Shown here piece after piece: positions 2,838 to 54,826 of a stretch of DNA of 64,000 nt. Numbering within the stretch: position 1 is the stretch's first letter; every line of letters begins with the position of its first letter. The position numbers and the translations under genes were made by a program. Source of the DNA: an uncultured Candidatus Binatia bacterium (GTDB lineage Bacteria > Desulfobacterota > Binatia > Bin18); the NCBI GenBank assembly GCA_965214605.1, contig OZ243961.1:1216001-1280000 (forward strand), read 5' to 3'. The notes beneath the pieces were generated by a model. The model searched no databases and was not told where the DNA came from. It was given only the letters and a program-made list of their open reading frames with translations.

Positions 2838-3671
2838 TTAATCGTCCAGGGCCGCGCGCACAGTGGCAAACAGGCGGCCGAGCTGCGTCAAGCCGTCCGC
2901 AATCCGTGGCCCATACCAACACAACGCCATTCCGTCGACGCAGTAGAGATGACCCATTTTCCCGGCGACCGTTTCGGCCAACGGTTTCAGATGGACGAAA
3001 TGTTTGGTGGTAAACGGATAGGGTTCGCTCGGCAGCACCACGACCTGCGGGTCAGCCGTCGCCACCTCGTCCAGGCTGACAGTTGGGTAGCGCTCGGCCT
3101 TGGCCCGAAAAATATTTTCTCCGCCACACGTCCGCAGCATATCGTCAATATAGGTCTGGTCGTTAAACGACATCCAGGGCTTGCGCCAGATTGGGCAGAA
3201 GACGCGTAAGCGGGGGTGGTATTCGAGGTCTGCTGTCAGCCGGTCAGCCTGCTGGCGCAGGGCGTGCGCCAACATCTGGCCGTCTTCCAAATGGCCGACA
3301 AGTTGCCCTAGCCGCTCGATCATATCGATCCCCTCCCTGACCGTTCTGGGCGCGGTCACATACACGCACAAACCGTGCTCCTTCAGCCAGACGAAATCTT
3401 CATGCCGGTTTTCCTCTTCGTTCAGGATAACCACATCGGGCTGCAGACGCAGTATGGCTTCCAGCTCCGGATTTTTGGTCCCACCGACCTTGGTAAGACC
3501 AGCAACCTGCTCGGGGGGATGAGTGCAGAAGCGGGTCACTCCAATGACAGACGCACCGGCGCCAAGGGCGAACAGAGTTTCGGTGATACTCGGCACCAGT
3601 GACACAATCCGCCGCGGATAGGCGGGAAGCGAAACCAGGCGCTGGAGTTCGTCAACACAGTCCATACACAC
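2838..3671 (-). CDS. Helical-backbone metal receptor / cobalamin-binding (BtuF-like) protein
   Basis: RIVSLVPSITETL, GVTRFCTHP, VGGTKNP, EEN and WYGPR motifs of the periplasmic binding protein type 2 family. Confidence 0.8.
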   Translation of the reverse strand: MCMDCVDELQRLVSLPAYPRRIVSLVPSITETLFALGAGASVIGVTRFCTHPPEQVAGLTKVGGTKNPELEAILRLQPDVVILNEEENRHEDFVWLKEHGLCVYVTAPRTVREGIDMIERLGQLVGHLEDGQMLAHALRQQADRLTADLEYHPRLRVFCPIWRKPWMSFNDQTYIDDMLRTCGGENIFRAKAERYPTVSLDEVATADPQVVVLPSEPYPFTTKHFVHLKPLAETVAGKMGHLYCVDGMALCWYGPRIADGLTQLGRLFATVRAALDD

Positions 3672-3680
3672 CCCGCTGTC

Positions 3681-3977
3681 CTAACGGTTTTCGGGATCCA
3701 AAATAGCCTCTAACTGCCGCTTCTCGTCAGGCGTATAGTCTCCCTCGAGCGGGGTAAGCGGGGTGGCTGGGGCAGCATCTTGGCTCGCCCAGGGCTGAAA
3801 AATTCCCATCCGACGCGCCTCTTTGTCAAGAAACATGACGATCCCAAGGAAACCGAGTAAGACCACACAGCCAAGGATGAGCAGAAACTTGGGCAGCAAC
3901 CAGCGTCGCTTTTTCGGCGCAGCTTTTTTTCTGCGGACAGGTGTCTTGCGGGTGGGTGTCTTTTTCCGGTCAGCCAT
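3681..3977 (-). CDS. Small bitopic membrane protein, hypothetical
   Basis: ATG preceded by AGGGGAAG. Basic N-terminus followed by one hydrophobic helix (LLILGCVVLLGFLGIVMFL). Lies within a minus-strand gene run. Confidence 0.65.
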   Translation of the reverse strand: MADRKKTPTRKTPVRRKKAAPKKRRWLLPKFLLILGCVVLLGFLGIVMFLDKEARRMGIFQPWASQDAAPATPLTPLEGDYTPDEKRQLEAILDPENR

Positions 3978-3988
3978 TCTCTTTCCCC

Positions 3989-5200
3989 TCAACGCCGGCT
4001 TAACGGTAGGTCTGAAGGGGCGTGTAACACCGCCCGGACGGCCTCCCAGCCGCTGCGCTGATGCCATCCCTCAACCCCATTGTACCACTTGAGCCCAACC
4101 GACTGAAGACGCTGGCTACGGGCGGCTAGACCGAACCAAAAGCGCCAGGCTGGTCCGTAGAACAGCCTGGTTGTCACCGCCAAACGGAAGAGTTTTTTGC
4201 CGACTCTGGAGCGGGCAAAGCGTTCGGTATAGCCGCTAAAATCGCCGCGCTGGCTGCTGAGGAGCGCCGACAGAATTTCCTGAGCCGCAAACTTCCCGTA
4301 TTCGAACGCAAAAGAGATGCCCTCGCCCATCAACGGCTCGGCCCCGGCCGCATCGCCTACCAACACCACACGCTGGCCGGCCAGGGCTCGGCGAGGATGA
4401 TAGCCACAGATAGGAAAAGCTCGCAAGCGATACGCCGTCTGGCAGTCGGCCTGTCCGGTCAGCGCGGCAACCTCAGCACCGAGCAGATGTCGCAGCTCGG
4501 CGTTGCTCAGGCGGGTCCGACCCAAGGCATAGATGCCGATATTCACGTGTGGCATTCCACCGATGAGGCATGGAAAGGCCCATAGATAGCCCTGTAAGCC
4601 ATGGCAAACAGGGAGAAAGTTAAAATCGTAGCGGCGCCGACCAAACCCCTCCCAGTTGGTGTCGGCCACAGGCACATCACACATCACCGCCCTGCCAAAC
4701 GGCAAGGTCGGTGACCCGACCAGCCGCCGTCGCACCCGGCTGCCCGAACCGTCAGCCCCCACAACGACTCGGGCCCGATAGGTCTGTTTATCGGTGACAA
4801 CGCGTACGCTAGCTGCCTCTCGCACCACGTCAATAAGCTTCTCAGACTGACGAATTTCGGCTCCTCGCTCCTCAGCGGCGCGAACCAATAAAAAGTCAAA
4901 TTCGTTGCGCCGAACAACCGAACACAGGCCGCCATCCTCACACACGACCTGCCGATTGGGCGGGACACGAACGAAAGCTCGGTCAACCGTGACGTGGGGA
5001 ATACTGAGCGGGACATCAAGCTCATCAAGACAGTTGATGGTATGGGGGATGAGTCCCCCGGCACAGATCTTCTCGCGGGGGTGGAGCGCCTTATCAATCA
5101 ACAGAATATTGCCGCTCAGCCTCGGCTCAGCCTTGAGCAGAGACAGAGCTGTGGCCGTTCCGGCTGGCCCTGCCCCGACAATCGCGACATCATAGGCCAC
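3989..5200 (-). CDS. Geranylgeranyl-reductase-family FAD-dependent oxidoreductase
   Basis: DVAIVGAGPAG, PREKICAGG, VGADG and LVGDAAG...GEGI motifs. Confidence 0.85.
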   Translation of the reverse strand: MAYDVAIVGAGPAGTATALSLLKAEPRLSGNILLIDKALHPREKICAGGLIPHTINCLDELDVPLSIPHVTVDRAFVRVPPNRQVVCEDGGLCSVVRRNEFDFLLVRAAEERGAEIRQSEKLIDVVREAASVRVVTDKQTYRARVVVGADGSGSRVRRRLVGSPTLPFGRAVMCDVPVADTNWEGFGRRRYDFNFLPVCHGLQGYLWAFPCLIGGMPHVNIGIYALGRTRLSNAELRHLLGAEVAALTGQADCQTAYRLRAFPICGYHPRRALAGQRVVLVGDAAGAEPLMGEGISFAFEYGKFAAQEILSALLSSQRGDFSGYTERFARSRVGKKLFRLAVTTRLFYGPAWRFWFGLAARSQRLQSVGLKWYNGVEGWHQRSGWEAVRAVLHAPSDLPLSRR

Positions 5201-40936: not shown

Positions 40937-40972
40937 TTGACAAGTGAAATTGAAAATGATTTTCAATTTCAC
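40937..40972 (+). promoter_or_regulatory. TTGACA -35 element followed by a perfect Fur-box-like palindrome
   Basis: TTGACA at 40937-40942. GTGAAATTGAAAAT-G-ATTTTCAATTTCAC at 40944-40972 is a 14-1-14 inverted repeat with a TGAAAATGATTTTCA core. Confidence 0.85.
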
Positions 40973-45694: not shown

Positions 45695-45805
45695 TATGAA
45701 CTCCTTTCCGTGGAAGACATACAAAACGCTGTATAAATTTAAAATAAGAGTTTCGAGCCGTAATGTCAAGGCAACTTCTTTTCTAAGTTACTAATTTTAT
45801 TGAAT

Positions 45806-45914
45806 AAAATGATTTTGAAAATCATTTTCGATTAGAAGGAAAAGCGATTTTGAAAATCATTTTCGATTAGAGTACCTATTTTTGAACTGATATTGAAAAC
45901 CATTTTCATCTAGA
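45806..45914. promoter_or_regulatory. Three tandem Fur-box-like operators in the divergent promoter region
   Basis: GATTTTGAAAATCATTTTCGATTAGA occurs exactly at 45811-45836 and 45846-45871, with a degenerate third copy at 45889-45914. Palindrome AAAATGATTTT-G-AAAATCATTTT at 45806-45828. Confidence 0.85.
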
Positions 45915-45963
45915 ACCAGGAAGGAGAAAAACATGGTGTCATAATCCGTAGCTACCGCAACCA

Positions 45964-46036
45964 GAGCTGAGCATTCGAGGCCAGCGGTCATACACCCAGA
46001 GCCCGTGGAGATACCGTCTTCACGGGCTCTTTTTTT
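45964..46036 (+). terminator. Leader motif copy B overlapping an intrinsic terminator (attenuator-like)
   Basis: GAGCTGAGCATTC-GAGGCCAGCGGTC-AT-ACACCCAGAGCCC. Stem AGAGCCCGTGGAGA / TCTTCACGGGCTCT (45998-46030) followed by a T run. Confidence 0.85.
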
Positions 46037-46070
46037 GCCGTTTATCTTCTTAAGGGAGGAGGAAAAACAG

Positions 46071-46286
46071 ATGGAAAAGATTCAGGACAACGATACCGTC
46101 CTTTTTGTGAACCACCGTGGGCTTTCTACCCGGATCTGTCCACGCGGCAGTGTGGCCTTATGCATTGGTCATACGTGTGTCTCCCTACGCAAAACGGATT
46201 TTCTCGATCTTGCAGAAGTTATTACCGCCACTCAACAACATCTGCTCAAACATCGGAGCTTTGAGCACGATCAGACAAAGCATTGA
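46071..46286 (+). CDS. Small Cys/His-containing hypothetical protein (paralog of 50323-50526)
   Basis: Strong SD GGAGGAGG. Sequence ICPRGSVALCIGHTCVSLRKTDFLDLA. Confidence 0.65.
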   Translation: MEKIQDNDTVLFVNHRGLSTRICPRGSVALCIGHTCVSLRKTDFLDLAEVITATQQHLLKHRSFEHDQTKH

Positions 46287-48133: not shown

Positions 48134-50008
48134 ATGTCAGTATGGTATCGTGCATGTATCTTAGGTGTTTTGTTGCTGTGGCCGGCGGTCAGTCCGGCCA
48201 CCATCACTGCCGTCCTAGAGAACCCTGGCCAGAGTAACAGTGTGTCAGGGCTGACAGTCATTTCCGGCTGGGCTTTCTCAGATAGTGGCGCGCCCATTAC
48301 GGTGGAGCTTCGTATCAATGGTGAGTCCGTCAGTCCTGTCCCATGCTGTAGTCCGCGCCAGGATGTGAGGGACACCATTCCTGGCGCACCGCTGAAGACC
48401 GGCTTTGGGCTGCTGTTCCATTATGGCCTGCTCGAAGCGGGCGTTCACACAATTGGGGTGGAGGTCAAGGCAGCAGTGGACGAACCGGTCATCACAGAAC
48501 ATATAGTAAGGGTGGTGAAGCCAGGCGGGGCTGAGTTCATTGAGGAGCTTGATCTTAGCCAGGCAAGCGCCGCCATTGAAGGTAATGAACTCCTAGTGTC
48601 CAGGGTACGGACGCGCTCCAGTCGCGGCACGAGCAGCGTTGATCTGCGCGTAGGCTACAGCCTGAGTACTCAATCTCCCATTATCTTGGCCGCCCCCGAC
48701 AGCCTTCCAATCGGCACTCACAGCACAGCCCTATCAGGAGGAGAGACCACTATTTTTGACGCCACCAGCCAGGCGTTTGAAATGCCGGCACCCAACCTGA
48801 CCGGGACGCGTCTAGAGAAACATCTTGAGGGCGACGCCACCTTTGGAAACACATTTGTGACAGCCCCTGCTCCAGTCTTCAGCGGCTTAGGTCCGATCTT
48901 CAACAATAATGGTTGCGTCAGCTGTCATCCGAAAAACGGCCGGGGTCGCCCGCCGCGAGAGGATGAGCAGCTGGAGTCCATGTTTCTGCGGGTCAGCATC
49001 CCAGGTGTCGATGCCGTGACCCTCGGCCCCCTCCCCGTCCCAGGTATGGGAACGCAGCTGCAACATCGAGCCGTCTTTGGCATTCCACCAGAGGCAGACG
49101 TGACCATGACTCAAACTGAGCATCTTGAGACCTTTGCCGATGGCGAGAGCATTCGGCTGCGGACCCTGCATTTTGCTATTGAGGATGCTGCTGTACCTCT
49201 CCCCGCCCAAGTCCTGACTTCGCCGCGCACAGCCCTGCCCGTGTTTGGACGCGGCCTGCTGGAAGCTATTAACCAAGAGACCATCCTAGCCTTAGCCGAT
49301 GAGTTTGACGCCGATGGAGACGGAATTTCTGGTCGGCCTAATATGGTCTGGGACACCATTGCCGGGGCAACTCGGCTGGGCCGCTTTGGCTGGAAAGCCA
49401 ATAATCCAAGCCTGTTCCAGCAGACCTTTAGCGCCTATCAGCAAGACATCGGCATTACCAATCCGGTCTTGCCGACTGAAAGCGCCGCCGACCAGCTCCA
49501 GGCTGACGGGCTGCCGGACGACCCTGAGATAGATACGGAAACCCTGGAGGTAACGACCTTTTACGTTCAAACGCTTGCCGTTCCAGCCCGGCGCCGGATG
49601 CATGACCCGCGAGTGCGAAGAGGCGAGGAGTTATTTAGCGCTGCCGGCTGCGCGGCCTGCCATACCCCGACGCTGAGAACAGGAGTTTTAGTCGGGGTGC
49701 CGGAGGTATCACATCAAACGATTCACCCCTATACCGACATGCTACTCCACGACATGGGTGAAGGATTAGCCGACAACCGGCCCGACTTTCTGGCTACAGG
49801 CCGGGAATGGCGGACACCACCATTGTGGGGCATTGGCCTCGCCCTGCGTGTCCAGGGCCATACCTTGTTCCTGCACGATGGGCGAGCCCGTAATCTCATA
49901 GAAGCGATCATGTGGCACGGTGGGGAAGCGGTTCAGGCCCGCGAGGCCGTACGTGCGATGGTTAGAGAAGACCGAGAAGCGCTCATCGCTTTTTTGGAGT
50001 CGCTGTAA
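48134..50008 (+). CDS. Di-heme oxidoreductase (DHOR/IrpB-like) with the same extra N-terminal domain
   Basis: Two CxxCH motifs (CVSCH, CAACH), plus GLGP.FN, DADGDGISGRPN, GRFGWKA, TPPLWGIG and HDGRA. Confidence 0.9.
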   Translation: MSVWYRACILGVLLLWPAVSPATITAVLENPGQSNSVSGLTVISGWAFSDSGAPITVELRINGESVSPVPCCSPRQDVRDTIPGAPLKTGFGLLFHYGLLEAGVHTIGVEVKAAVDEPVITEHIVRVVKPGGAEFIEELDLSQASAAIEGNELLVSRVRTRSSRGTSSVDLRVGYSLSTQSPIILAAPDSLPIGTHSTALSGGETTIFDATSQAFEMPAPNLTGTRLEKHLEGDATFGNTFVTAPAPVFSGLGPIFNNNGCVSCHPKNGRGRPPREDEQLESMFLRVSIPGVDAVTLGPLPVPGMGTQLQHRAVFGIPPEADVTMTQTEHLETFADGESIRLRTLHFAIEDAAVPLPAQVLTSPRTALPVFGRGLLEAINQETILALADEFDADGDGISGRPNMVWDTIAGATRLGRFGWKANNPSLFQQTFSAYQQDIGITNPVLPTESAADQLQADGLPDDPEIDTETLEVTTFYVQTLAVPARRRMHDPRVRRGEELFSAAGCAACHTPTLRTGVLVGVPEVSHQTIHPYTDMLLHDMGEGLADNRPDFLATGREWRTPPLWGIGLALRVQGHTLFLHDGRARNLIEAIMWHGGEAVQAREAVRAMVREDREALIAFLESL

Positions 50009-50074
50009 GCTGCTCTTGGTCTGGTCTTGCCAAACAAGAAGAAGTGGTGTATAGAATAGCTTCAATCGATAATT

Positions 50075-50143
50075 GAGCTGAGCGGCCCGCAGCGATACAG
50101 TTCAGAGCCCGCCATGAAGAAGTGTTCCTGGCGGGCTTTTTTT
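50075..50143 (+). terminator. Leader motif copy C (diverged) overlapping an intrinsic terminator
   Basis: GAGCTGAGC-GGCCCGCAGCGATACAGTTCAGAGCCC. Stem AGAGCCCGCCA / TGGCGGGCTTT followed by a T run. Possible promoter upstream (TTGCCA 50027, TATAGA 50050). Confidence 0.75.
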
Positions 50144-50322
50144 GTGTGCGGGCAACGACAAGAAAACGGCAATGAAGAAACAGGGGGGACCGGCATCCCG
50201 TCCAGGAGTCACGGCAGTCCGCTCAGAACTGAGAGGAAGTTTTATGAAGCGGACATTCGATTGTGCCCACTCCCCCCTACTGGTGCCTGAGAGCAGCTCA
50301 TTACACAGATAAAGAGGAGCAT

Positions 50323-50526
50323 ATGAACAGCACAGGTTTTTGGCACACGAGAGAACACCAGATCAGCATCTCACAGTGCCCGGAAGGCTGTATTCATCTC
50401 GTGGTCGGACGGGCAATCATCAAAATGACGCGAGAAGAATTTCTGGTCCTAGCCAAGCTAACCAATACTGCCAACCGGGAGATATCCCTGGCAGAGCCAC
50501 GGCTGGTGTCTAAACTCGGGCACTGA
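50323..50526 (+). CDS. Small Cys/His-containing hypothetical protein (paralog of 46071-46286)
   Basis: SD GAGGAG. Sequence ISQCPEGCIHLVVGRAIIKMTREEFLVLA. Confidence 0.65.
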   Translation: MNSTGFWHTREHQISISQCPEGCIHLVVGRAIIKMTREEFLVLAKLTNTANREISLAEPRLVSKLGH

Positions 50527-50809
50527 CTCCTACTCACAGCTCTCCCCTGTCAGAAGGGGGAGAAAGGGAAAGTCGGGATGTCCTCAAAGAGATGTTGCCA
50601 GCGCTGGTGGATGGGCTGCCAGCGTCAGATGTCCCGCTTTCCCTGTTCTCTTCCGCTGTACACAAGGACAGCAAAACATGTCAGATCGGGGAAGATACTG
50701 GTCCACACTTGGCGTCATCCTCTTGTGAGGATGTGTCCTGCGGTCGGCCGCTGCCCCCGATTTTTCGGTTTCGGTCCAGGATGGGATAGGCCGTCATATC
50801 AGCCTAGCT

Positions 50810-51440
50810 CAACCAGCCGAACGCGTTATCGCTCTGAGCCAAGGCAGCCTGGATATTGTCCAAACCCTGGGCGGTCGGCTGGTCGAGCATCCGAACATAG
50901 GCGAGTGTGACACTGCCCGAGGAATTCCAGTCTTTGCCAGCGGTGAGCAACGCGGTGGTGCCGAATCTTGAGGCAGTTGTGGACGCTATCCAGATCTGCT
51001 TATTGCACCAACCCGGGCTTACGGCGGTGTCGCGCAACGCTTACAGATGGTGCAGACCGCACGATATCTGTGGCAAGCGTACAGCGTGACCGACGTCGTC
51101 CAGGTCAGTCATAACATTGGCACGCTGCCCGGTCGCCAAGATCAGGCTGCGGCCCTCAGCCAAGTTTCGTCCCAAAAGCTGGGCCGAGGTGAGAAGCGGC
51201 CTGCCCGGCAGTCCCCGCCCGACGATTTTGCTGTTCGGGACCACCCAAACCTTTCTGGTCATTGCTCCGTGGACGTATGCTGGCGACTTGTTGTACTTGG
51301 TCGAAGGAAAAAATCTGCCCGTCGACATTGCCTCCGGCTACCCGCACGATCCTGGCTATGAACTGCTCCCTCTCAGTCTTGAGAAACTACTCGTCACCAA
51401 ACCGAAAGTCATCTGGTCGGCCACGGCGATCCCAGACGGT
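50810..51440 (+). pseudogene. Frameshifted iron-complex ABC transporter substrate-binding protein
   Basis: Successive frames give QPAERVIALSQGSLDIVQTLG / LPAVSNAVVPNLEAVV / PDLLI...SVTDVVQVSHNIGTL.GRQDQA / LFGT.QTFLV...TYAGDLL..V.GKN...PLSLEKLL.TKP.VI. Confidence 0.72.
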
Positions 51441-51539
51441 GAACGCTGCCCCCAACCAAGAACTCAACAGCCATCCAGCCCGGTAAGGACTCAGCGCCGT
51501 TCAACGTGCTCGGGTGATGGAAGATATAATCTGCCGGGG

Positions 51540-51725
51540 CAACAAGCCGGAGCAGACCCATAACCTGGAGTTGGGGGCAACATGGAGCCTACTGAACGAC
51601 AAACTACTACTGACAGCCGAGATCTTTAAGGACGACGTGATGGAAAACATGAAGAACGGGAGCCCCTCAGCACGCTCAACGCGAGCAAGAACCGGGTCAG
51701 AGGGCTGGAGTTCTCTCTGGCAACA
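51540..51725 (+). pseudogene. Internal fragment of a TonB-dependent receptor beta-barrel
   Basis: KPEQTHNLELGATWSLLNDKLLLTAEIF, then after a frameshift KNRVRGLEFSL. These are typical TBDR strands (PE...YELG.K...L.L.AA.F; RV.G.E). Confidence 0.6.
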
Positions 51726-51827
51726 CTTGCGACCGACCTCGGCGGACTGATGGTATTCTTGATGCTGGTGTTTTTCGTTTAGGATTGCCAGAACCAGAAA
51801 GTTTTTGCAGAAAATCCGGCTTCCCCC

Positions 51828-51891
51828 TTGACAGAACAAAGAAGCCCCACTAGTTTCCTTAAATTGAAATTGATTATCAATTTCAATTTAA
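51828..51891 (+). promoter_or_regulatory. Sigma70-type promoter with a perfect 16-1-16 Fur-box-like palindrome
   Basis: TTGACA (51828-33), 17 bp, TAGTTT (51851-56). TTAAATTGAAATTGAT-T-ATCAATTTCAATTTAA at 51859-51891. Confidence 0.88.
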
Positions 51892-52066
51892 TGTACGAGC
51901 GACCCTGAGCAAAACCGCCCAGCTACCGCTTCAGGAGTCACGGAAAGCAAAAATTACGGCCACCGGTCGTTAATCAGAACACCAGTGTGGTAGGAGAAAA
52001 TCGGTGCTCCTGCCATTTGCCCCGGGGTAGTCTCCCTCCTGATTGCCCCGGGGCATCCGTTTTATT
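51863..52066 (+). ncRNA. Candidate Fur-repressed small RNA or structured leader
   Basis: Promoter and operator with no credible ORF. Three hairpins; the last is a 15-bp stem (52018-52055) with loop TCCCTCCT, followed by GTTTTATT. Confidence 0.55.
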
Positions 52067-52219
52067 GAACTTCTTGGCTAAAGTCCTGTGTTGTCGGGAC
52101 AGAGAAGCCGAGCACTACCCCTGTCTATCCCGACGCAGTCATTGTCAAGAAAGGGGAGTCGTCATCAGGATCACAATCCTAGTACCGATATATTTCTGAA
52201 CTGAAACGGTCCTCTGTAG

Positions 52220-52242
52220 TTGAATTTGAAAATCAATTTCAC
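52220..52242 (+). promoter_or_regulatory. Fur-box-like site upstream of feoA
   Basis: TTGAATTTGAAAATCAATTTCAC shares the TGAAAATCA core with the other operators. Confidence 0.7.
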
Positions 52243-52248
52243 TACCAT

Positions 52249-52491
52249 ATGGGGATGCAGAAAACCCTGGCAGAACTCGGCCCCTCAGAGCATGGAGAGA
52301 TCCACACCATTCATGGCACGGACGGCATATCACGCCGTCTGGCAGAACTCGGCTTCACCCCGGGCCAGACGGTCGAGGTTCTCCGTTTTGCCCCTTTGGG
52401 TGATCCCATGCAGATCCGTATCCGCGGCTATCAACTCGCCCTCCGTCGTCAAGAAGCGGCCCGCGTCCTGCTAGTCTCCTCCGGCATATAA
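52249..52491 (+). CDS. feoA: Ferrous iron transport protein A
   Basis: RRLAELGFTPG...APLGDPM.I.IRGYQLALRRQEA. Confidence 0.95.
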   Translation: MGMQKTLAELGPSEHGEIHTIHGTDGISRRLAELGFTPGQTVEVLRFAPLGDPMQIRIRGYQLALRRQEAARVLLVSSGI

Positions 52492-52505
52492 GAAAACACC
52501 ACGCT

Positions 52506-54665
52506 ATGGTTCCCCCTCCCGTTCCAGATGCTGTTGACCCGTCTCTCGCTACCGAACGTCGCTACAGAGTGGCAGTGGTCGGCAACCCCAACACGGGCAA
52601 GACCACCCTGTTCAACGCTCTCACCGGTCTGAGCCAACACACTGGAAATTATCCCGGCGTCACAGTAGAGAGCGCCTTGGGAGAGTTCCGGGAAGGCCAG
52701 GATCGCTTTCTGGTGGTTGACCTACCCGGCACCTACTCGCTGGCCGCCCGTGCTCCGGACGAAATGGTTGCTGTGTCGGTGCTACTAGGTCATGGCAAAG
52801 GGGTTGCCCAGCCAGATGTGATTGTGTGTGTGGTCGATGCTACTAATCTCGACCGTAACTTATACCTGACGACCCAGGTCATTGATATTGGCCGACCGCT
52901 AGTCATTGCTCTAACCATGACAGACCTGGCCGACAAACAGGGGCTCCGCCTCAACCTCCCTGTACTCGAACACCGTCTAGGCGTGCCAATTATTGCCGTG
53001 CATGCGGCACGGCGCAGCGGGCTGACAGCGCTGCGCCAGGCGATTCGGACCGCAGCCGGTACGCCGTCCAGGCCACCGCGGCCGGTCCGCCTCCCCACCC
53101 TTATCGAGCGCGAGCTCAAGACGCTCGACGCCACCCTGTCGCCACACCATCTCCCTCCCATCTTCCTCGAACGCGCTCTGCTTGACGTCGACGGGTTGAT
53201 AGAGCGTGACCTGATCGGCGCGTTGGGCAGTCCTGCCCTGACTGAACTTCAGGCCGCCCGCACCCGTCTAGTCACCGTCGGGTTGCGCGTACCACAAGTT
53301 GAGGTTGAGCGACGCTATGAGTGGATTGCCCAAACCGTTGCCGCCAGCCTTGAGCCGCCTGCCGAGCCGAGCGGTCCACGGCCTGCCAGCTGGACCGACC
53401 GGATTGACGCCCTGGTCATGCACAGAGTCTGGGGGATGGTGATCTTCCTGCTGACCATGGCGGTGACGTTTCAGTCAATCTTTTCGTGGGCCGTGCCGAT
53501 CATGGACACTATTGATGGGCTGTTTTCAGGTCTCGGCACCTGGGTCGGCAGCCTCCTACCCGAGGGACCGGTCCAAAGTCTGATAGTTAACGGTATTATC
53601 GGCGGGGTGGGAGCTGTAGTGGTCTTTGTCCCTCAAATCGCCATTTTATTCGGACTCATTGCTCTGCTCGAAGACTCTGGGTATATGGCTCGGGCAGCGT
53701 TTTTGATGGACCGCCTGCTCGCCGGATTTGGCCTGTCGGGGCGGAGTTTTATTCCGCTCCTGTCTTCCTTTGCATGCGCGGTGCCGGGCATTATGTCGGC
53801 CCGTACGATTGAGAATCAACGTGATCGGATCGCTACCATTCTCATTGCGCCGCTGATGAGCTGTAGTGCTCGTTTACCGGTCTATGTGTTGTTGATCTCG
53901 GCCTTTATTCCGGCTCAGACCATGTGGGGGGTTGTTGGTCTTCAGGGGTTGACTCTCTTTACGATGTACCTAATCGGGCTGATTGTCGCCCCCCCCGTCG
54001 CCCTGATGCTCAAGCGAACGATATTAGCGGGCGAGCCCGTCCCATTTCTGATAGAACTGCCGGTGTTTAAGGTTCCGGCCTGGCGTGTCGTTGTCTTCCG
54101 TATGTATGAACGCAGCCTGGCTTTTCTAAAGCGGGCGGGCACGATCATCTTAGCCACTACCATCCTGGTCTGGGCTTTGTCGTACTACCCGTACTCCGAT
54201 CAGACCGCTGAACAGGATGGCTCAGCGGTTGTAGAGGCTGGTGAGCGCTTACGCCAGAGTTATCTGGGCCGGGCCGGCCGGGCGATTGAGCCGTTCGTTG
54301 AGCCACTCGGCTGGGACTGGAAAATCGGGATAGCGACCTTAGCCAGCTTTCCCGCCCGCGAGGTGATCATTGCCGCCCTGGGCACGATCTACAACCTGGG
54401 CAGCGAACAGGACGAGACCAGTCTTGAGCTACGTGACGCCATGCGCGCCGAACGCCGACCGGACGGCCGCCCGGTCTATACTCCGCTGGTTGCGCTGTCG
54501 GTCATGGTCTTTTTTGCCTTATGCTGCCAGTGTGGAGCCACCCTGGCAACGATTAAACGTGAAACCAACTCGTGGGGCTATCCGGTGTTTACCTTTGTGT
54601 ATATGACGAGTTTGGCCTATCTTGGCGCCCTGGGGATATATCAGATCGGGAGTCGGATAGGCTAG
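52506..54665 (+). CDS. feoB: Ferrous iron transport protein B
   Basis: GNPNTGKTTLFNALTG, NYPGVTVE, DLPGTYSL, LEDSGYMAR, FACAVP and MSCSARLPVY motifs. Confidence 0.97.
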   Translation: MVPPPVPDAVDPSLATERRYRVAVVGNPNTGKTTLFNALTGLSQHTGNYPGVTVESALGEFREGQDRFLVVDLPGTYSLAARAPDEMVAVSVLLGHGKGVAQPDVIVCVVDATNLDRNLYLTTQVIDIGRPLVIALTMTDLADKQGLRLNLPVLEHRLGVPIIAVHAARRSGLTALRQAIRTAAGTPSRPPRPVRLPTLIERELKTLDATLSPHHLPPIFLERALLDVDGLIERDLIGALGSPALTELQAARTRLVTVGLRVPQVEVERRYEWIAQTVAASLEPPAEPSGPRPASWTDRIDALVMHRVWGMVIFLLTMAVTFQSIFSWAVPIMDTIDGLFSGLGTWVGSLLPEGPVQSLIVNGIIGGVGAVVVFVPQIAILFGLIALLEDSGYMARAAFLMDRLLAGFGLSGRSFIPLLSSFACAVPGIMSARTIENQRDRIATILIAPLMSCSARLPVYVLLISAFIPAQTMWGVVGLQGLTLFTMYLIGLIVAPPVALMLKRTILAGEPVPFLIELPVFKVPAWRVVVFRMYERSLAFLKRAGTIILATTILVWALSYYPYSDQTAEQDGSAVVEAGERLRQSYLGRAGRAIEPFVEPLGWDWKIGIATLASFPAREVIIAALGTIYNLGSEQDETSLELRDAMRAERRPDGRPVYTPLVALSVMVFFALCCQCGATLATIKRETNSWGYPVFTFVYMTSLAYLGALGIYQIGSRIG

Positions 54666-54682: not shown

Positions 54683-54826
54683 ATGGATATACAGACTTTG
54701 CTCATCCTGCCCATCGTTACCCTTGCTACAGTGTATGTTGGCTGTCGGCTGTGGCCCCGCCGTAAGGATAAGGTCGGCTGTGGGAGCTGTCCCCAGAATC
54801 GGAATCGGACCAATGACTATGCCTGA
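54683..54826 (+). CDS. FeoB-associated Cys-rich membrane protein
   Basis: 47 aa with one TM helix then GCGSCP, directly after feoB. Confidence 0.75.
   Translation: MDIQTLLILPIVTLATVYVGCRLWPRRKDKVGCGSCPQNRNRTNDYA

Follow-up and report, generated by a model that had tools for sequence, protein, structure and literature searches.

A candidate Fur-linked non-coding RNA with an anti-Shine-Dalgarno-like loop in the iron gene cluster of a Candidatus Binatia bacterium

Introduction

Does the stretch of about 200 nt that precedes feoA in an uncultured Candidatus Binatia bacterium encode a small RNA, and could such an RNA contribute to iron sparing? A handful of cultured lineages are known to use small RNAs for iron sparing, and these RNAs have several independent origins. 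C-rich single-stranded motifs that target ribosome-binding sites are also found in RoxS/RsaE. RoxS is described as nitric-oxide regulated. RoxS/RsaE are not Fur-regulated, unlike the candidate described below, which gave no Rfam match to them. Our literature search on small RNAs of Binatia/Binatota found no described regulatory RNA.

In this study, we analyzed a contiguous stretch of 64 kb from the Candidatus Binatia genome (hereafter, the window). The GC content of the host genome is 55-60%. The region of interest is surrounded by an iron cluster that includes a ferritin-like gene, an imelysin, a di-haem oxidoreductase, FeoA, FeoB, an IscA/ErpA-like protein and TonB-ExbD-ExbB, with FeoA and FeoB identified by Pfam. 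An initial annotation proposed that this region holds an undescribed iron-sparing sRNA. Our comparisons rest on the window and five Binatia-like loci around feoB (L001, L002, L003, L004, and L006); the remaining 13 of the 18 feoB loci that were fetched belong to other phyla. The closest relative is the Candidatus Binatia MAG L001, whose FeoB is 83% identical to that of the window, while the FeoB proteins of the other four Binatia-like records show 67-79% identity. Directly after feoB, the window contains a 47-aa Cys-rich hydrophobic small ORF (54683-54826), which had no match in an NCBIfam search. A mobile-element origin of the region was considered and rejected, as blastn searches of plasmid and phage collections gave no match to it.

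Results

The region carries a Fur-box-like operator, a palindrome of 33 bp that begins 2 nt after the candidate -10 hexamer (Table 1). The initial annotation had described it as the longest perfect operator in the window, and our inverted-repeat scan of the 64 kb bore this out: no other perfect short-range inverted repeat is longer, the runner-up being a 14-1-14 repeat at 40944-40972. When the 23-nt operator core was searched with up to three mismatches, three sites were found in the window (40950, 51864, and 52220) and none in 100 shuffles. By hand count, the palindrome agrees at 14/19 positions with the classical 19-bp Fur box. Moreover, an operator of the same type is located directly before feoA in all six Binatia-like loci (the window, L001, L002, L003, L004, and L006), and second operator sites lie nearby in L001, L004, and L006. 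The window operator is also a more perfect palindrome than its L001 counterpart. A Fur-type operator at the promoter and start site is one of the marks of Fur-repressed sRNAs, and the candidate region has it in the form of a predicted site.

Table 1. Positions of the features in and around the candidate region, numbered along the window.
Feature	Position	Strand	Basis
Candidate promoter: TTGACA (51828-51833), 17-nt spacer, TAGTTT (51851-51856)	51828..51856	+	Read from sequence
Fur-box-like operator, perfect 16-1-16 palindrome, core 51864-51886	51859..51891	.	Inverted-repeat scan
Poorly conserved 5' part with weak hairpin 1, CCTGAGC/GCTTCAGG (51904-51935)	51892..51985	+	Folding, alignment
Hairpin 2: 10-bp stem, 10-nt loop AAAAUCGGUG	51987..52016	+	Folding, alignment
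Hairpin 3: 15-bp CCCCGGGG-based stem, anti-Shine-Dalgarno-like loop UCCCUCCU (52033-52040)	52018..52055	+	Folding
T-run TTTTATT, possible intrinsic terminator tail	52060..52066	+	Terminator scan
Putative relic: former glnII leader, vestigial ribosome site, then 26-nt remnant of a minus-strand gene	52067..52189	+	Alignment to L001
Separate feoA operator, outside the candidate RNA	52220..52242	.	Core search

The core search also recovered the separate operator of feoA that the initial annotation had noted further down. The feoA start lies 7-16 nt downstream of this operator, no Shine-Dalgarno sequence is visible between the two, and the feoA operators of the window (52220-52260) and of L006 (2727-2765) each include a potential promoter, TTGAAT-17-TACCAT and TTGAAA-17-TATTGT, respectively. 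Hence, feoA may be leaderless. The third window operator, the perfect 14-1-14 repeat mentioned above (in the segment 40937-41098), has a TTGACA ahead of it, and a gap of 2 nt separates it from the start codon (ATG) of a 41-aa Cys-rich frame, which is followed by a 525-aa ORF without a Pfam family. Between the ferritin-like gene and the operon of a small ORF, the imelysin and the di-haem oxidoreductase (45790-46070), we observed three Fur-box-like palindromes of a second flavour, namely a perfect 11-1-11 repeat at 45806-45828 and repeats near 45846-45870 and 45890-45910. A strong terminator (45998-46030, followed by T7) is placed ~130 nt past these palindromes and ahead of the ribosome site of the small ORF (46071-46286). 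This segment may hold another Fur-linked short RNA or an attenuator.

The candidate promoter upstream of the operator matches the consensus at 6/6 positions of the -35 hexamer and at only 3/6 positions of the -10 hexamer. Its earlier description as near-consensus is therefore overstated: TTGACA stands, but TAGTTT does not, and a consensus promoter scan over 51000-53000 called no promoters. A TTGACA-17-TATTTT promoter was called ahead of the ferritin-like gene, so TAnTTT may be a usual -10 in this genome. A CTTGAC(A/G) box is also present upstream of the operator in L001, L006, and L004. Only in the window and L001 does a -10-like hexamer follow the TTGACA box at canonical spacing; in L006 and L004 the spacing is non-canonical. 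We also considered an alternative promoter embedded in the operator, TTGAAA-17-TTTAAT, with a start near 51899. The feoA operators of the window and of L006 accommodate this arrangement, but its -10 does not have the A of position 2 and is a poor one in L001, L006, and L004. It was not adopted.

Downstream of the operator, ~170 nt are devoid of a conserved ORF. The only reading frames that overlap the region are a 70-aa GTG frame (51987-52199) and a 35-aa frame on the minus strand. The former had no match in Pfam or NCBIfam and no homologue among predicted proteins of 38-123 aa. Furthermore, one-nucleotide indels between the window and L001 break every frame, and the loop motif of hairpin 3, CCCUCCU, falls in different frames in L006 and L004. 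These results agree with the original statement that ~200 nt contain no credible ORF, and the region appears to be non-coding. In L001 (3000-4562), no stop codon interrupts the glnII frame in the 184 codons that precede its ATG, a stretch that includes both hairpin modules described below; this may be due to chance or to an assembly artefact. A comparison with predicted proteins of 286-910 aa gave no homologue of this extension. The small protein encoded at 46071-46286 resembled, by eye, the inter-unit frame of L001 and a small frame of L004; BLASTP gave no alignment at E <=100, and a relationship is not claimed.

Folding recovered the three hairpins that had been proposed, but hairpin 1 turned out to be weak (-6.0 kcal/mol) and its pairing is not kept in L001. 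Hairpin 2, with arms TGGTAGGAG/CTCCTGCCA, folds at -14.7 kcal/mol, and hairpin 3 folds at -31.7 kcal/mol when considered alone. The 15-bp stem and 8-nt loop attributed to hairpin 3 were confirmed, and for each of three assumed transcript boundaries the loop TCCCTCCT came out unpaired with p = 1.0. Taken as a whole, the 204 nt fold at z = -5.96, and none of 200 shuffles folded as well. A terminator scan called hairpin 3 and the T-run, which begins 4 nt past the stem, terminator-like. This T-run is unique to the window, being absent behind the homologous hairpins of L001, L006, and L004; therefore, termination at hairpin 3 is not a conserved feature. Searches with the covariance models of Rfam 15, a collection of described and curated families only, gave no match in the region at the gathering threshold. 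At E <=10, we obtained only chance-level matches, all of them <=19 bits and far below the cut-offs, and no family matched L001-L004 or L006. Against Rfam 15, the term undescribed holds.

Of the six Binatia-like genomes, four carry a hairpin whose arms contain CCCCGGGG and whose loop is CCCUCCU; it was located in the window, in L001 (3393-3426), in L006 (2300-2332), and in L004 (5039-5010, minus strand). L001 carries two tandem units, one of which (L001a, proximal to the operator) holds a degenerate copy of the hairpin. In the four genomes, the elements keep a fixed order and orientation: the hairpin always lies on the strand leading away from an operator, and the distance from the operator centre to the hairpin is 145 nt in the window, 148 nt in L001a, 153 nt in L004, and 165 nt in L006. 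The module is absent within 6 kb of feoB in L002 and L003, and no other CCCCGGGG/CCCUCCU hairpin was found elsewhere in the window or in the 18 fetched loci. A search with the covariance model R1 gave no further convincing copies, only two weak L004 matches at 20-22 bits. These are located at 40-126 and 3982-4070 (20.3 and 21.9 bits), and the match at 40-126 corresponds to a hairpin of the form GGGUCCCUAGG...CCUAGGGACCC whose loop is C/U-rich, and lies upstream of the imelysin homologue. In the units that we term type A (L006 and L001a), hairpin 2 also has a CCCUCC loop. In addition, L006, L001a, and L004 show an earlier hairpin with a U-run 60-100 nt past the operator, which, if terminating, could cut the operator off from the CCCUCC hairpins. 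A wider family that would include window segments 45905-46070 and 50009-50160, based on terminator ends of the AGAGCCCG...CGGGCT type, was dropped; blastn revealed no similarity of the region to either segment, and its sole match, of 12 nt and terminator-like, was between segment 50009-50160 and L004.

The position of the unit relative to feoAB varies among these genomes. In L004, the unit has the opposite orientation to feoAB and is separated from feoA by a CDGSH iron-sulfur gene. In L001, it is found ~2 kb upstream of feoAB, with three genes in between, including glnII. In L006, a terminator and then a convergent gene separate the unit from feoA. Of note, a run of N (a scaffold gap, 2441-2560) lies inside this convergent gene, and part of the L006 locus is unseen. 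The units of L006 and L004 have no gene behind them and constitute stand-alone modules. A feoAB 5' UTR would be expected at a fixed position and orientation before feoA, which is not what L001, L004, and L006 show. Because of the inversion in L004, the intervening genes in L001, and the convergent gene in L006, the unit is not a simple feoAB 5' UTR. That the region makes nothing but a long feoAB 5' UTR had been named beforehand as an outcome fatal to the sRNA proposal.

The alignment between the window (51899-52165) and L001 (3273-3553) has 77.7% identity, unevenly distributed. Identity is 66-80%, near neutral, in the 5' third and the middle of the region (about 51890-51985), rises to 97% in hairpin 2 and 90% in hairpin 3, and falls to 66-70% downstream of hairpin 3. 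In this pair of genomes, identity at neutral sites amounts to 64-79% for third codon positions and to 53-68% for intergenic DNA. The two 3' hairpins exceed these levels and hence appear selectively conserved; they look as conserved as first and second codon positions, and the rest of the region looks neutral. Between the window and L001, four substitutions fall in the stems, and each of them leaves a standard pair in place (two U.G to C-G changes, one A-U to G.U, and one U-A to U.G). The single stem change of hairpin 2 is a U.G to C-G change, and the loops of hairpins 2 and 3 have no substitutions. Moreover, CCCUCCU is invariant in all four genomes that carry hairpin 3, so that a lack of loop conservation, also cited beforehand as grounds for abandoning the proposal, does not apply. 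Across five copies of hairpin 3, 95.4% of the cells are paired. The search for covariation in relatives gave a mixed answer: every stem change preserves pairing, but true covariation is thin, because 9/14 pairs never vary and only five copies are available.

Of the two L001 units, it is the second (L001b), and not L001a, that is orthologous to the window unit. L001b extends as far as the ribosome site and start codon (ATG) of glnII, whose product (3552-4562) was recognized as GlnII with 538.5 bits. In the window, glnII is absent, and the sequence beyond the T-run is 66-70% identical to L001 3440-3553, with an ATC (52164-66) at the position of the glnII ATG; the remnant of the next gene that follows matches L001 5427-5452 and L006 2576-2601. 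A location directly upstream of glnII on the same strand, as expected of a glnII 5' leader, is found for the L001 orthologue and not for the window unit. Besides, ~320 nt that lie between the operator and the unit in L001 are missing from the window. Deletions have set the window unit directly behind the operator and removed glnII. Further upstream, ~1.8 kb of the window (50000-51780) contain no ORF of more than 157 codons from stop to stop, and the L001 counterpart (1342-2076) is intact; window positions 50324-50857 are 81% identical to an intact 244-aa ORF of L001. The genes of this segment look like decayed genes. A pseudogene of a TonB-dependent receptor is not claimed for this upstream segment, as a single fragment matched at E = 0.03, below our cut-off.

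The loop of hairpin 3 has the properties of a seed: it is conserved in all four copies of the hairpin and is predicted to be fully single-stranded. The initial annotation had called for a prediction of target pairing, including pairing with the ferritin-like gene, and within the 64-kb window this prediction found no signal above shuffled loops. When the loop was scanned for duplexes with either strand of the window, the best non-self duplex reached -26.6 kcal/mol, within the range obtained with ten shuffled loops (-25.7 to -29.5 kcal/mol). The longest complementarity to the loop in the 64 kb, 11 nt, falls on the ribosome site of a gene for a PLP enzyme rather than for an iron protein. By eye, the ribosome site of the ferritin-like gene offers only ~5-6 nt of pairing. 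Favoured pairing with this or any other mRNA start was not found in the window.

Discussion

We consider that there is an even chance that the region encodes a non-coding RNA under the control of a Fur-type repressor, belonging to a new family of Binatia and working like IsrR or FsrA. Under iron-replete conditions, the repressor, presumably Fur, would occupy the 33-bp palindrome, which spans the predicted start site. Iron scarcity would allow the synthesis of a non-coding RNA of ~170-200 nt that would end at, or shortly after, the GC-rich hairpin 3. This hairpin would hold the invariant CCCUCCU loop fully single-stranded, and the loop would base-pair with the translation-initiation regions of other mRNAs. 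Such base-pairing in trans is the most likely action because the loop is complementary to ribosome-binding sites of the GGAGG type; the targets may include mRNAs whose silencing spares iron. The operator, the strong fold of an ORF-free region, the conserved C/U-rich loop, and the lack of an Rfam match speak for the iron-sparing sRNA that was originally proposed. Conversely, the weak -10, the poor conservation of hairpin 1 and the T-run, the orthology to a glnII leader, and the lack of a favoured target pairing speak against it.

The history of the locus raises an unlikely but substantial alternative, in which the window copy is an orphaned relic, that is, a Fur-controlled promoter joined to the remains of a leader or small-gene region that once preceded glnII. 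It would yield at most a functionless short transcript, and its conservation would stem from recent descent or past constraint. The alignment with L001, which ends precisely at the glnII start, the ATC in place of the ATG, the loss of glnII with a 26-nt remnant of the next gene after it, the adjoining 50000-51780 segment without intact genes beside its intact L001 counterpart, and the neutral identity of both the 5' third and the part that follows the hairpins are all in line with this explanation. It must be taken seriously because the locus is being remodelled through deletions and upstream gene decay, and since the surroundings of the window copy decay in this way, its conservation could reflect past rather than present function. 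However, a perfect 33-bp palindrome, better than that of L001, is unlikely in drifting DNA at such divergence. Besides, the distance of 145 nt between operator and hairpin resembles the 148-165 nt of the stand-alone units in other genomes, the L006 and L004 modules occur by themselves and are followed by no gene, and the window copy is the only one that gained a T-run behind the hairpin. A role in cis appears improbable to us. According to this explanation, the unit would be an additional Fur-controlled promoter further upstream, whose long structured 5' UTR would serve feoAB in the window and glnII in L001; the ribosome site downstream would be the cis target of the C/U-rich loop, or the hairpin would be an attenuator. 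Each L001 module is indeed followed by a ribosome site and a start codon (of the small frame at 3152 and of glnII at 3552), and with a T-run 4 nt off the stem, read-through to feoA, 190 nt further on, is possible. These observations are countered by the inversion of the unit relative to feoAB in L004, by the terminators and convergent genes behind the unit in L006 and L004, and by feoA itself, whose own operator 7-16 nt before its start leaves no visible Shine-Dalgarno sequence for the loop to mask.

That the conserved element acts as DNA is very improbable. The two CCCCGGGG octamers could be sites for a DNA-binding protein, or the hairpin a dispersed REP-like palindrome without RNA function; each octamer is itself palindromic, and the 9/14 invariant stem pairs are what a sequence-specific site would be expected to show. 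Yet CCCCGGGG occurs only three times in the 64 kb, against 2.6 occurrences expected, and two of the three belong to hairpin 3, so the hairpin is not a dispersed repeat and the REP-like option was rejected. The spacing between octamer starts also varies (26 nt in the window and L001b, 25 nt in L006, and 22 nt in L004), pairing in the inner stem survives changes on one side, and no part is more invariant than the loop that the octamers flank. We give hardly any credence to a coding role, either of the 70-codon GTG frame as a small protein or of the 184-codon open frame of L001 as a small protein or N-terminal extension. Apart from the existence of the window frame, this option has in its favour that a stretch of 184 codons without a stop before the glnII ATG would arise by chance at ~0.5% per frame, according to our own rough estimate. 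Against it, single-nucleotide indels shift the window frames relative to those of L001 on either side of the hairpins, the matching frame of L006 contains a stop, the GTG is not preceded by a ribosome site, and the stem substitutions fit RNA pairing and show no preference for synonymous sites. With the failure to find families or homologues for either frame, the coding reading is largely refuted, and it was rejected for both frames.

Returning to the preferred reading, a Fur-controlled RNA acting in trans, its closest counterpart is IsrR of Staphylococcus. IsrR is described as an RNA of ~174 nt made of stem-loops and a terminator, with Fur boxes at the promoter and immediately downstream of the start, and with conserved single-stranded C-rich loop regions that pair with Shine-Dalgarno regions (PMC9410917). 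The window candidate likewise has an operator over the predicted +1, a predicted length of ~170-200 nt, and a C/U-rich loop. Unlike IsrR, which has three C-rich loops, the window copy has one; it comes from a different phylum with a GC-rich genome and shows no sequence or covariance similarity in Rfam. The same source attributes the good discrimination of the IsrR seeds to the AT-rich genomes of staphylococci (PMC9410917). In a genome of 55-60% GC, a C-rich seed would by comparison be less discriminating. FsrA of Bacillus subtilis is described there as a Fur-repressed RNA that binds Shine-Dalgarno sequences via a C-rich motif and needs the FbpABC helpers (PMC9410917); the candidate shares with it a Fur-type operator and a C/U-rich loop, and differs in having no Rfam homology to it. 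RyhB and PrrF1-PrrF2 are presented as Fur-repressed sRNAs that underwent gene duplication in some species, are Hfq-dependent, and, in the account given by that source, do not bind Shine-Dalgarno sequences via a C-rich motif (PMC9410917). The two tandem units of L001 resemble such duplication. In contrast to RyhB and PrrF, the candidate presents a C-rich loop, and Rfam gave no match. Altogether, the recurrence and the selective conservation of the loop-bearing hairpins suggest that the region is a credible candidate for a known kind of regulator.

A broader and rather doubtful proposal is that Binatia carry a mobile, duplicating RNA module, a GC-clamped CCCUCCU hairpin that would mimic the anti-Shine-Dalgarno tail of the 16S rRNA and would have been wired repeatedly to Fur operators. 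It might serve as a stand-alone trans-acting RNA in L006 and L004 or as part of an mRNA leader in L001, where, on the same doubtful footing, the module acting as a leader would precede the small frame and glnII. The window would then record the conversion of a leader into an sRNA gene via two deletions and the gain of a T-run, and would represent a rare visible case of the birth of an sRNA from a 5' leader.

If the Fur-controlled RNA is real, it would constitute an independent case of a Fur-linked RNA with an anti-Shine-Dalgarno loop, from an uncultured phylum. It would also provide a concrete operator motif and an RNA model for annotating the iron regulons of Binatia. Moreover, the tandem copy of L001 and the deletion history of the window may offer a view of how sRNAs are gained from, or lost to, mRNA leaders.
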